The notes under the pieces are model-generated. The model worked only from the letters and a program-made list of their open reading frames with translations, had not been told where the DNA came from and did no database searches. Positions 53,603 through 56,640 of a DNA stretch of 64,000 nucleotides are shown in pieces (position 1 is the first letter of the stretch; each line of letters opens with the position of its first letter). The stretch lies in NCBI RefSeq assembly GCF_054482595.1, contig NZ_CM137008.1, one strand, 5' to 3'. The translations under genes were made by a program, and so were the position numbers.

Positions 53603-55054
53603 CTATTTGCTTTCATTTATGGTTTCCATCATGAGCTGTTGCTGCTTTTCTTTGGACAGTCGAGCGATACCAAAGCCTGTGAACCCCCACAGCGTCGCAA
53701 AGAAAATGCCACTCCAGCAGAGAATAGCCCACGGAAGATAGCTTAATGTAGCAACGCCAAGTGTACCTGCCATGTAGGCACCCGCGGCAGTCCAGGGCAG
53801 AATTGGTTCAAATATGGTGGCAGAGTCTTCTACAGTCCTTGCCAGATTTTTTGGATGTAGGCCGCGCTCAATATAAGCACTTCGTAGCATTTCAATCGGA
53901 ATCAGGATTGATATCTGACCATTACAGGTCACGCTAATCATTGTTAAACCACAGGCAATAGTCGCAAGAATCATGGTTCCTGTGGAATGAACTAATTTGA
54001 GCAGATTATGGACGATGACTTCTAAAGCGCCGCTCAAGGCTAATGTTCCTGCAAATGAAAGGGCGCAGAAACAAATAAGCAACGTACTCATCATCGAGTT
54101 CATGCCACCGCGGTTTAACAAATTACCTAATAGCGGATTAACATCTTTATCGGTAAGCATTGAAACGTTAAATCCGTCTACTGCACTTTTAACAATGTCG
54201 TGTAGTGCGAACCCCTGAATAACGCTGGCGTTGATCATGGCTACCAGTGCCGAAACAAGCATAATTGGAATGGTTGGTTTCTTGGTAATCGAACCGTACA
54301 GGACAATGGCAATGGGTAGCAATAACAATAAATTAAAATGATAAATTCCTTTTAATCCTTCAGTGATTAGCTGAATTTTTTCGGGAATGGTTGAGCCGCC
54401 GAGCTCGCCATTCATCCCATAGAGCGTCATAACAAAGGCTGACAGTATCAATGAAGGAAGGGTTGTATAAAGTAAATGAGCGATGTGTTCATAGAGATCT
54501 ATCTGGGCTGCCATTGCGGCTAAGTTAGTATCACCAGAAAGGGGAGACAGTTTGTCCCCGAAGTAAGCCCCTGCCACAATAGCGCCTGCAGTTGCTGCCA
54601 GATTAGCCTCCATTCCGATAGCCACACCCATAAACGCAACACCGACGGTGCCTGCGGATCCCCAGGATGTCCCTGTGCATACAGAAACGACGGCAGTAAC
54701 GAGCAGGGCCGTCACATAGATCATGGAAGGATTTATCAGAATAAGGCCGTAATAAATCATCAGCGGAATAGTACCGCCTATCATCCATGTCCCAATCAGG
54801 AGGCCCACGCTGATCAAAATTAGCAGAGCAGGCATTGTTTTAGCGATTTTCTGCGATATTGATTCAAGGATTGCATTGTAGCCATACCCCAACCGCTTAA
54901 CTAACAGTGCAGCAATGACGGTTGAAAGAACCATTAATGGCTCAGGTGGCAGATCGAATGCCGCATAACCAAATCCCAGCAATAGTATCATCGCTAGTAT
55001 TGGTAATAATGATTCCACCAGAGTTGGGGATCTTGGAGTATTGTTATTATTCAT
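53603..55054 (-). CDS. NhaC-family (Na+/H+ antiporter-like) membrane transporter
   Basis: About 483 aa from MNNNNTPRSP; polytopic membrane protein with NhaC-family pattern; AT-rich. Confidence 0.75.
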   Translation of the reverse strand: MNNNNTPRSPTLVESLLPILAMILLLGFGYAAFDLPPEPLMVLSTVIAALLVKRLGYGYNAILESISQKIAKTMPALLILISVGLLIGTWMIGGTIPLMIYYGLILINPSMIYVTALLVTAVVSVCTGTSWGSAGTVGVAFMGVAIGMEANLAATAGAIVAGAYFGDKLSPLSGDTNLAAMAAQIDLYEHIAHLLYTTLPSLILSAFVMTLYGMNGELGGSTIPEKIQLITEGLKGIYHFNLLLLLPIAIVLYGSITKKPTIPIMLVSALVAMINASVIQGFALHDIVKSAVDGFNVSMLTDKDVNPLLGNLLNRGGMNSMMSTLLICFCALSFAGTLALSGALEVIVHNLLKLVHSTGTMILATIACGLTMISVTCNGQISILIPIEMLRSAYIERGLHPKNLARTVEDSATIFEPILPWTAAGAYMAGTLGVATLSYLPWAILCWSGIFFATLWGFTGFGIARLSKEKQQQLMMETINESK

Positions 55055-56225
55055 GAAGGGAAACTCCTGTAGTGAAGGGGATGCTCTGATAAATCCGTTC
55101 AAATGCTTGTGTAAGATTGCTTCTCGGCGTGGCTATGTTCACACGGAAAAAACCAAGTCCTTCATCGCCAAAATCTGATCCCCAGCTCATCTCAACACCT
55201 GCGAGCGAGACAAACCAATGGCGTAGTTGCTCTTCGCTGATGTTCATTGCCCGGTAGTCGATCCACAACATGTAAGTTCCGCCACCAGAGGCGACAAACC
55301 AGTCTGGAAAATGAGCTTGGCAGAATGATTGAACCCAGCTCCTGTTTTCGACCAAATAATCTTTTAATGCTGCTAACCAAGAATCGCCATGGCGGTAAGC
55401 ACAGAGAAATGCAGGAACAGAGAAATAACCAGGATTATGGATACCTGCTGCAATAAGAGCTAATTTAAACTGTTCACGATATTTATCGTTAGCAATAACA
55501 ATATTTGCGATTTCAAGTCCGGCCATATTAAAAGTTTTTGCTGGAGATGTACAAATAAACGAGTTTTGTGCAACGTATGAGCTTATAGAAGAAATTGTTT
55601 GATGTTGTTTTTGGGTGAAGTTGAAGTCTGCATGAACATCATCAGAAATAATAAAAACATTATATTTTTCTGCTAATGAAGCTATTTTCCTTAGATTGTC
55701 TTCTGACCAGATTGTTCCTGTTGGATTATGCGGCGATATTAGAATGAAACAACAAGCCATTTTAAACTTATCTTCGAGATCCGCAAAGTCTATTTCATAG
55801 TGGTGGTCACGATAAAGTAACGCACTTTCCAGCAATACTCGATGGTTGACTTCAACTGCATGACTAATAGGATGATAGGCTGGTGCCAGGCTGACAATAG
55901 CATCTCCCGGTTGGGTAAAGTTCTGGATAAATAATGAGACGGCCTGTACTACCCGTGGGCAAAAAACAATGTGTTCAGGGTTGACCTTCCACGAGTAATG
56001 GCGTTGATACCACTGTGCTGCCACTTGCTGCCAGTCATCACTTAATAATGTATAACCGTAGATACCTTTCTGATTTGCGACAGATAATTCAGAAACTATA
56101 AAATCAGCTACAGGAATATCCATATCAGCTACAGACAGGGGAATGATGTCACGCCCCTTGTTATTATATTTAGCGCTATAGGTTCCGTCGCGTGAAATAA
56201 CTTTATCAAAATTATAAACTTTCAT
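55047..56225 (-). CDS. PatB/MalY-type PLP-dependent C-S lyase, second paralogue in the window
   Basis: About 392 aa from MKVYNFDKVISRDG (the track ORF begins at an upstream GTG at 56339); aminotransferase class I/II fold with SPAKTFNMAG around the PLP lysine; overlaps the NhaC gene start by 8 bp. Confidence 0.8.
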   Translation of the reverse strand: MKVYNFDKVISRDGTYSAKYNNKGRDIIPLSVADMDIPVADFIVSELSVANQKGIYGYTLLSDDWQQVAAQWYQRHYSWKVNPEHIVFCPRVVQAVSLFIQNFTQPGDAIVSLAPAYHPISHAVEVNHRVLLESALLYRDHHYEIDFADLEDKFKMACCFILISPHNPTGTIWSEDNLRKIASLAEKYNVFIISDDVHADFNFTQKQHQTISSISSYVAQNSFICTSPAKTFNMAGLEIANIVIANDKYREQFKLALIAAGIHNPGYFSVPAFLCAYRHGDSWLAALKDYLVENRSWVQSFCQAHFPDWFVASGGGTYMLWIDYRAMNISEEQLRHWFVSLAGVEMSWGSDFGDEGLGFFRVNIATPRSNLTQAFERIYQSIPFTTGVSLHE

Positions 56226-56640
56226 ATTTGTTACTCGCCCGGTTTTATCGTTAGGGTAATGTAATATTTCGAGGGAGGAAGTGTTATTCTGTATTTTGTT
56301 TTCGTTATTATGAAAATTTGCATATGTGATGTTTATCACAAAGATGTTAACTATCTGTCAATAAAAAGACTCCAGCAAATGTAAACGTTTTACATCGCTT
56401 AAGCCTATGGAATTTACATAAAAAAAGGGCGTGCCGAGTCTTTCGACCCAATCATTATCTCGGTAACTCCATTCACAAGAGCAGGAAATAACCTCTTCAA
56501 CAAATAACAGACTGATGCCTGCGAGCGCGCTCCCCAGGTTTCCGGGCTGAAAGTACCGCCGCACTCGTTTAACGCGGAACAGTCTGTGTTGGCGGTTTAA
56601 TGGTGGATGTTGCTGTAGACCACAACTGATGAGGCAACGG

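Follow-up and report, generated by a model that had tools for sequence, protein, structure and literature searches.

In a 64,000-nucleotide stretch of contig NZ_CM137008.1 (NCBI RefSeq assembly GCF_054482595.1), referred to as the window in the following, two overlapping genes on the minus strand encode a pyridoxal 5'-phosphate (PLP)-dependent β-lyase of the PatB/MalY family and a membrane protein of the NhaC family. We propose that this pair forms one operon, composed of a promoter (56258..56340), the lyase gene, the transporter gene and a hairpin, which represents an unlinked copy of a xylose-regulon module and would serve to import and split a xylose-linked amino acid. For this reading as a whole we see just under an even chance; that the pair is functionally linked to the xylose regulon, on the other hand, is very probable. 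The genes and the elements that tie them together are the following:

55047..56225, minus strand: lyase gene, PLP-dependent β-lyase of the PatB/MalY family, 392 amino acids
53603..55054, minus strand: transporter gene, polytopic membrane protein of the NhaC family (Pfam PF03553), 483 amino acids, predicted importer of the lyase substrate
55047..55054, minus strand: overlap of the two genes, ATGAATAA, 8 nucleotides (nt), with the lyase stop codon TAA inside the transporter start (sequence reading)
55064..55068, minus strand: Shine-Dalgarno motif AGGAG of the transporter gene (sequence reading)
53536..53559, minus strand: GC-rich hairpin, CACGCCGC-N8-GCGGCGTG, located 44 nt past the transporter stop, with 8 pairs, 7 of them G-C, and a weak T tract (terminator-like scan)

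The first-pass annotation of the region 53603..56339 had described two overlapping, translationally coupled genes in an AT-rich stretch. Both open reading frames (ORFs) are indeed present on the minus strand with an overlap of 8 nt, which is also found in K. oxytoca, Pluralibacter and Pasteurella, and the compositional bias is real but moderate: The guanine-plus-cytosine (GC) content of the pair is 42.9% (lyase 40.8%, transporter 45.2%) compared to 49.1% for the window, corresponding to the 10th percentile among 2.7-kb windows. The family assignments likewise hold, as the lyase scores 368.9 bits against the PatB model TIGR04350 (cut-off 340; residues 44–420 of the long ORF, profile positions 1–383 of 384) and the transporter 593.1 bits against the NhaC model TIGR00931 (cut-off 370). 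The 5' ends given at that time, however, had been taken from the longest ORFs and extend too far upstream for both genes. The lyase starts at ATG 56225 rather than at GTG 56339, because the latter lies inside a CRP-like site (56325..56340) and because the N-termini of the orthologues align to MKVYNFD; the transporter starts at ATG 55054 (MNNNNT...), which has AGGAG 9 nt upstream, rather than at TTG 55102. The hairpin is likely the terminator of the operon. The DNA of the locus is 100% identical over 3.5 kb to that of E. coli O157:H16 Santai and other strains, where the RefSeq/PGAP labels read "MalY/PatB family protein" and "Na+/H+ antiporter NhaC", and 372 of 5426 complete E. coli genomes carry at least 80% of this 3.5-kb region.

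To place the pair in a wider context, one genome per species (GTDB representatives) was scanned with an alignment of the lyase and the hits were subjected to a neighbourhood analysis with tblastn. An nhaC gene lies directly downstream of the lyase gene in 58 of the 65 loci in which the lyase shares at least 41% identity with that of E. coli, and three more of these loci are contigs that end right after the lyase gene; among loci with more distant PatB homologues, the figure is 1 of 15. Proteobacteria, Firmicutes and a single actinobacterium all keep the order lyase-then-nhaC. This module is old and conserved, in agreement with the earlier description of a coupled enzyme and transporter unit. 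That description had also stated that the pairing could not be placed in any characterised system, and full-text searches of the literature yielded nothing that describes the pairing, its link to xyl genes or a bacterial catabolism of xylosyl-serine; the single transcriptome hit in H. influenzae, for HI1107, offered no information.

The recurrent partner of the pair is the xylose regulon. In 33 loci, to which three cut loci may be added, the pair is embedded in a xylose operon, and these operons follow at least eight arrangements under three types of regulator (XylR, ROK and AraC type):

Proteus spp. and Serratia, likely also Providencia, whose contig ends just after the lyase gene: xylR<>lyase-nhaC-xylA-xylB
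An enterobacterium: xylR-xylHGF<>lyase-nhaC-xylAB
Zophobihabitans and Gallibacterium: xylBA<>lyase-nhaC
Pasteurella and Actinobacillus: xylBA<>lyase-nhaC-xylFGH-xylR
Aggregatibacter and Haemophilus influenzae: xylBA<>xylFGH-lyase-nhaC-xylR
Necropsobacter: xylBA<>lyase-nhaC-xylR
Oral Lachnoanaerobaculum: AraC-type regulator<>xylA-xylFGH-lyase-nhaC
An Anaerococcus genome: ROK-type regulator<>lyase-nhaC-xylA-xylB-galM-fsa

In several of these xyl clusters, NhaC is the sole transporter. The first-pass annotation had suggested a sulphur amino-acid derivative as the substrate; this reading is not supported, given that no sulphur-metabolism gene recurs in the 80 loci. In a pan-genome-wide association study of non-typeable H. 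influenzae, xylA, xylB and an NhaC-family gene were enriched in blood over sputum isolates (PMC11932112); this association is confounded by lineage, and it is not stated which NhaC gene was meant.

The second line of evidence comes from the DNA upstream of the lyase gene, where three elements can be distinguished:

56325..56340: CRP-like palindrome, TGTGATAAACATCACA in minus-strand reading, the sole perfect TGTGA-N6-TCACA in the 64-kb window (0.09 expected)
56278..56317, minus strand: XylR-type operator, direct repeat TTTCATAAT-N17-GAATAAC, whose AAT triplets are spaced 21 bp apart
56258..56266, minus strand: candidate -10 hexamers TATTAC / TACATT, 19–22 nt downstream of the operator (sequence reading)

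XylR operators consist of two direct repeats that end in AAT and lie next to the -35 region (PMC3561964). The operator at 56278..56317 fits this pattern and, together with the CRP site upstream, presents the layout of an XylR-regulon promoter. A consensus derived from four xyl-linked loci has a single match in the window, located at 56278..56317 with 1 mismatch, where none would be expected. We additionally constructed a matrix from xylA and xylF promoter sites only (K-12 xylA and xylF, Zophobihabitans xylA and ten Pasteurellaceae xylA), leaving aside all lyase promoters: It assigns 25.3 bits to the same position, which is the top match of the window (next best 19.8, maximum of 100 shuffles 17.8), and locates sites at -87 to -99 relative to the lyase start codon throughout the gammaproteobacteria; loci with the lyase gene immediately behind xylH yielded no site, nor did the Firmicutes loci. 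In every gammaproteobacterial locus in which the lyase heads the transcription unit, the direct repeat occurs at equal distance, irrespective of whether the locus is xyl-linked or orphan, and a palindrome with the core GTG-N8-CAC, in most cases the full TGTGA-N6-TCACA, lies 109–134 nt upstream of the lyase ATG. Between genera, the 60 bp of the operator block show about 81% identity, whereas the non-coding DNA on either side is unalignable. When the E. coli locus is compared with that of K. oxytoca, homology begins at 56341, i.e., at the CRP site, which forms the upstream edge of the conserved cassette. The geometry of the candidate -10 element resembles that of the K-12 xylF promoter; a generic sigma-70 promoter scan did not single this element out, and promoter and terminator scans together yielded little beyond the hairpin after nhaC. 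From this pattern we infer binding of XylR, and we predict that the E. coli lyase promoter is under XylR/CRP control. The H. influenzae locus (L095, 7827..10407), in which the pair is located between xylH and xylR, has an XylR-type site of its own at -88 with 16.6 bits.

Turning to the enzyme, the solved relatives of the lyase are PatB-type C-S lyases: The best matches include 4dgt (1.8e-78) and B. subtilis PatB (6qp3, 7.8e-73), and the group, which further includes S. hominis PatB (6qp1/6qp2), T. denticola cystalysin (1c7n) and E. coli MalY (1d2f), shares fold and family with the target by sequence at E-values from 1e-78 to 1e-47. Based on family knowledge and published work (PMC7385124), we assign K230 in the motif SPAKTFN as the predicted PLP lysine, N167 in SPHNPTG and D195/H198 in SDDVHAD as residues that hold PLP, and R361 as the residue that binds the substrate carboxylate. 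These residues are invariant in 15 orthologues and common to unlinked PatB homologues, and they are shared with the C-S lyases named above, whose α,β-elimination via aminoacrylate is the predicted chemistry of the target lyase, too. The β-elimination proposed in the first-pass annotation is thus plausible: PatB signature and catalytic residues are kept, and a RidA gene is appended to the pair in 20 of 22 Paenibacillus loci. Both genes are under purifying selection despite their pseudogene-rich surroundings, because the rate of non-synonymous substitution (dN) relative to K. oxytoca is 0.19 for the lyase and 0.08 for the transporter while synonymous sites (dS) are saturated, which leaves dN alone as informative.

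What sets this clade apart became visible when 68 nhaC-linked lyases were compared with 15 unlinked PatB homologues. Eleven residues (A18, T59, R91, Q94, A199, E238, N241, G261, H263, N264 and P265) are invariant in the clade, specific to it and rare or absent (0–20%) in the unlinked homologues. In S. hominis PatB, the pocket for the leaving group is formed by Y25, V46, Y72*, V108, P134, F274 and T276* (PMC7385124). We mapped this pocket onto the target approximately, by means of offsets between conserved anchors (V46~V32, Y72~Y58, P134~P119, R376~R361): V108 comes to lie beside R91/Q94, and the counterparts of F274 and T276 are A259 and G261, where a clade-specific G-x-H-N-P loop starts. According to this approximate mapping, the polar clade residues R91, Q94, E238, N241, H263 and N264 lie at or near positions of the hydrophobic S. 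hominis pocket, and the leaving-group pocket of the target lyase therefore appears to be polar instead of hydrophobic. Context and pocket residues together suggest that, in place of a C-S bond cleavage, the enzyme expels a different, polar leaving group.

A regulator of the MalY type, an anti-activator of MalT, would share an operon with malX under the control of MalI. The target lyase, by contrast, does not stand beside malX and is only 29% identical to the malX-linked paralogue of the window (20995..22173). The latter had been counted as a second PatB/MalY paralogue, which is correct as to its presence and in the family sense but no further, as it follows malX, lacks nine of the 11 clade-specific residues and belongs to the classical malX-malY type. 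It forms part of a row of genes:

19196..24076, plus strand: malX-like phosphotransferase-system gene, the MalY-type paralogue and a 637-amino-acid "enterotoxin" gene

The transporter carries the domain PF03553, which is also recorded for its homologues, and is polytopic, with eight strong hydrophobic 19-mers in a crude hydropathy scan. It shares both features with the members of the NhaC family, such as the Na+/H+ antiporter NhaC of Bacillus, the malate/lactate antiporter MleN and the ArcD-type arginine/ornithine exchangers; against the ArcD model it reaches a partial match of 287 bits, which is below the cut-off of 650. Its closest homologues (63–88% identity) come from the same taxa as those of the lyase. 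A search of solved structures returned no structural relative, and we found no characterised member of this sub-clade in the literature. Unlike in the case of the antiporters, the genomic context points to the import of a substrate for a cytoplasmic lyase and not to cation homeostasis: Because the transporter is constantly coupled to this lyase, a role as substrate importer is likelier than Na+/H+ exchange, and the name provided by the NhaC "equivalog" model is probably an over-annotation.

Clues to the substrate are provided by those lineages in which the module has been modified. RidA, whose gene is appended in Paenibacillus, is a member of the enamine/imine deaminases, a family by which 2-aminoacrylate is removed, and its presence after the pair fits an elimination reaction. 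In these 22 loci the pair follows a YheO-like regulator (PAS_6/HTH_22; e.g., L009, 7273..11269, as well as L033, L041 and L045). Two Paenibacillus species (L053, L061) have a divergent lyase with the exchanges H263F and N264D and are without NhaC. In Klebsiella indica (L020, 8001..11732), the lyase gene is followed by genes for an M20D amidohydrolase/carboxypeptidase and a glycoside-pentoside-hexuronide (GPH) symporter, which replaces NhaC; two metagenomic contigs (L092, L093) share this layout. The K. indica lyase carries all 11 clade-specific residues and stands behind the same CRP-plus-direct-repeat promoter block, which is not the top match of the matrix there. That a glycoside carrier has displaced NhaC here, in the company of a peptidase, suggests as the substrate an amino acid or a short peptide with a sugar attached. 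To our knowledge, the one widespread natural conjugate of xylose and an amino acid is Xyl-β-1-O-Ser. Through this linkage, glycosaminoglycan chains are attached to their core proteins (PMC12666056). Most carriers of the pair are animal-associated. Glycosaminoglycan attachment sites are Ser-Gly sequences, and Proteus vulgaris is the source of chondroitinase ABC; each of these would agree with such a substrate.

Taken together, these observations lead us to the following tentative mechanism, in which the substrate, the direction in which it is transported and its cleavage by elimination are inferred from sequence and gene context. In the absence of glucose (CRP-cAMP) and the presence of xylose (XylR-xylose), chromosomal XylR would activate the lyase promoter. 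The NhaC-family protein would then import an amino acid that carries xylose on its β-oxygen, most likely O-β-D-xylosyl-L-serine, the stub of proteoglycan linkage regions, possibly after trimming by a peptidase. The PLP enzyme of the PatB clade would form the external aldimine with this substrate and β-eliminate the sugar, thereby releasing D-xylose, which would enter the XylA/XylB pathway and further induce XylR, and 2-aminoacrylate, which would decay to pyruvate and ammonia. That the pair imports an amino-acid conjugate and cleaves it by β-elimination is probable; that this conjugate is xylosyl-serine is possible, at somewhat less than an even chance. With the same reserve, a PLP-dependent "O-glycosyl-serine lyase" and a dedicated importer that scavenge xylosyl-serine, the universal remnant of animal proteoglycan degradation, and feed xylose into XylAB may constitute an unrecognised catabolic route.

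Several points weigh against this interpretation. We know of no NhaC-family protein that carries glycosylated substrates and of no PLP enzyme that eliminates a glycosyl group from serine, the usual solution being a glycosidase. The K. indica variant represents a single lineage, no xyl gene is found near the pair in the 22 Paenibacillus loci, where the YheO-like regulator takes this place, and the assignment of residues to the pocket was made by sequence offsets and not by structural superposition. In E. coli, furthermore, the pair is located among pseudogenes and some strains have an IS3 insertion in nhaC, which means that the module may be dispensable or decaying there, and the shared promoter may have been inherited with the cassette without responding to E. 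coli XylR.

Other roles were considered as well. The pair might import cystathionine, cystine, lanthionine or a cysteine S-conjugate for a classical C-S β-lyase that yields pyruvate, ammonia and a thiol, in which case the xylose context would be a regulatory convenience or an accident. This would agree with the score of the lyase in the PatB C-S lyase model, with its closest solved relatives, which are all C-S lyases, and with the Paenibacillus contexts devoid of xyl genes, and the linkage to RidA fits any elimination that forms aminoacrylate. We nevertheless regard it as unlikely: Besides the lack of a recurring sulphur-metabolism gene near the pair, chance can hardly account for the pair being found time and again inside xyl operons that are governed by three types of regulator, a glycoside-pentoside symporter displaces the transporter in K. 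indica, and the clade has polar residues where a lyase for hydrophobic thiols has apolar ones. In an Rfam scan of 52500..60500, tRNA-Phe was the only hit, and no riboswitch in front of the E. coli copy reached the threshold; the search did not extend to operators of MetJ and CysB. Somewhat less likely again is the handling of another amino acid or by-product that is needed during growth on xylose without being covalently linked to the sugar, for example by an aminotransferase and an amino-acid importer or exporter that balance nitrogen or pyruvate. No xylose-specific physiological need of this kind is obvious, and neither the swap to a GPH transporter and an M20 peptidase in K. indica nor the role of NhaC as sole transporter in minimal xylAB clusters would be explained by it; still, membership in xyl operons and an XylR-type promoter demonstrate co-regulation and not a shared substrate, the PatB family belongs to the class I aminotransferase fold, and the partial match to the ArcD model fits the amino-acid and organic-acid carriers that the NhaC family includes.

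Two further explanations are highly improbable. MalY binds MalT, and by analogy the lyase could bind and damp the xylose activator, the transporter being a mere passenger. Membership in the MalY/PatB family speaks in favour of this idea, as does the fact that malY shares an operon with the transporter gene malX, a pair that is also present in the window; the linkage to xyl genes under three unrelated types of regulator (XylR, ROK, AraC), the co-evolution of transporter and lyase, the strict conservation of the catalytic residues and the linkage to RidA, which implies catalysis, all speak against it. If, finally, the annotation were taken at face value, a true Na+/H+ antiporter would stand next to a housekeeping aminotransferase with which it has nothing to do, and in E. 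coli both would be decaying island cargo. Such a view would account for the wide margin by which the NhaC "equivalog" model is passed, for the pseudogenes and insertion-sequence (IS) debris around the pair and for the IS3 element that interrupts nhaC in some strains, yet it is difficult to reconcile with two intact reading frames under strong purifying selection (dN 0.08–0.28, dS saturated), with a gene order and translational coupling kept across phyla and with the conserved operator block.

In E. coli, the pair sits, without linkage to xyl genes, in a tRNA-Phe island whose GC content is about 6% below that of the surroundings. The flanks of the pair comprise the following features:

About 53065..53180: IS629/IS1203 fragment (IS3 family), ~110 bp, 91–97% identity
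53395..53528: PsiE fragment
About 56619..57839: phosphoethanolamine-transferase pseudogene
58163..59428, minus strand: P4-type integrase, which together with the adjoining tRNA-Phe marks the island end
59626..59701, minus strand: tRNA-Phe (Rfam scan)
50245..52685, minus strand: pepT (peptidase T, M20 family) and an MFS-transporter gene, an operon of overlapping genes downstream on the same strand

The flanks named in the first-pass annotation, an IS629-like remnant and a sulfatase-type pseudogene, can be recognised among them, if the latter is equated with the phosphoethanolamine-transferase pseudogene, as we presume; a sulfatase-type domain is typical of such transferases. The match with the Santai genome ends at 59648, within tRNA-Phe, and the window therefore derives from another strain and has a different right-hand neighbour. 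The module is being lost in some E. coli lineages, as nhaC is broken by an IS3-family element in strains 19SZHZ663Rt and ET565. The pepT-MFS genes, which have 38–41% GC and are more AT-rich than the lyase-nhaC pair, were considered as partners of the pair and rejected: There is no co-occurrence elsewhere, IS and PsiE debris lies in between, and they have no XylR-type site. Two other gene clusters of the window are:

About 42033..46197, minus strand: mtnK, mtnA, an L-fuculose-phosphate-aldolase-like gene and a GRP-family sugar transporter (labels from the matching Santai record)
About 6900..14750, plus strand: complete citrate-lyase cluster (citCDEFXG), accompanied by an MFS transporter and a copy of acnB

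The mtnK-mtnA cluster resembles the "DHAP (dihydroxyacetone phosphate) shunt" of extraintestinal E. coli for the salvage of 5'-methylthioadenosine and 5'-deoxyadenosine. Several other sugar-acid modules (yjhIHGF, sgcR) and many IS66/IS3 fragments accompany the citrate-lyase cluster, and the island as a whole is a mosaic in which small catabolic cassettes are combined.

A comparison with established systems shows which parts of the proposed module have precedents. Unlike the PatB/MalY C-S lyases, the target lyase is coupled to a transporter and is usually found in xyl operons, and its leaving group would be a sugar oxygen rather than sulphur. The closest parallel is the thioalcohol pathway of S. 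hominis, in which a peptide transporter, a dipeptidase and the C-T lyase PatB act on Cys-Gly-3M3SH (PMC7385124). As proposed for the pair, an amino-acid conjugate derived from the host is imported, optionally trimmed by a peptidase and relieved of its side-chain substituent by PLP-dependent β-elimination, and the peptidase step finds its counterpart in the M20 peptidase of the K. indica variant. The two systems differ in that the transporter of S. hominis is a POT-family peptide transporter, that the pocket is predicted to be polar here and is hydrophobic in ShPatB, and that the pair is associated with the xylose regulon. With regard to regulation, the lyase promoter has the same architecture as the XylR/CRP promoters of E. 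coli xylAB/xylFGH: a CRP site and, next to the -35 region, a direct repeat whose two AAT-terminated copies are 21 bp apart. The pair is physically located within such operons in many species and unlinked in E. coli, and neither of its genes has a known role in xylose catabolism.

If our interpretation is correct, it would provide a function and a regulon for two genes that are present in hundreds of E. coli genomes and in the pathogens H. influenzae, Pasteurella, Proteus, Serratia and Aggregatibacter. The PatB family would gain a new PLP reaction, the β-elimination of a glycoside from serine, and the NhaC family a new class of substrate. Even if the substrate has been guessed wrongly, the predicted control of the island operon by XylR and CRP would correct the expectation of a control by sulphur. 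Moreover, the xylose regulon would gain a host-derived substrate, which in turn would give bacteria of animal mucosa, joints and the urinary tract a reason to catabolise xylose: It would explain why host-restricted H. influenzae, Pasteurella, Aggregatibacter, Proteus and oral Lachnoanaerobaculum maintain xylose operons despite the scarcity of free xylose in their niches, and would account for the island-borne acquisition of the module by part of the E. coli strains.

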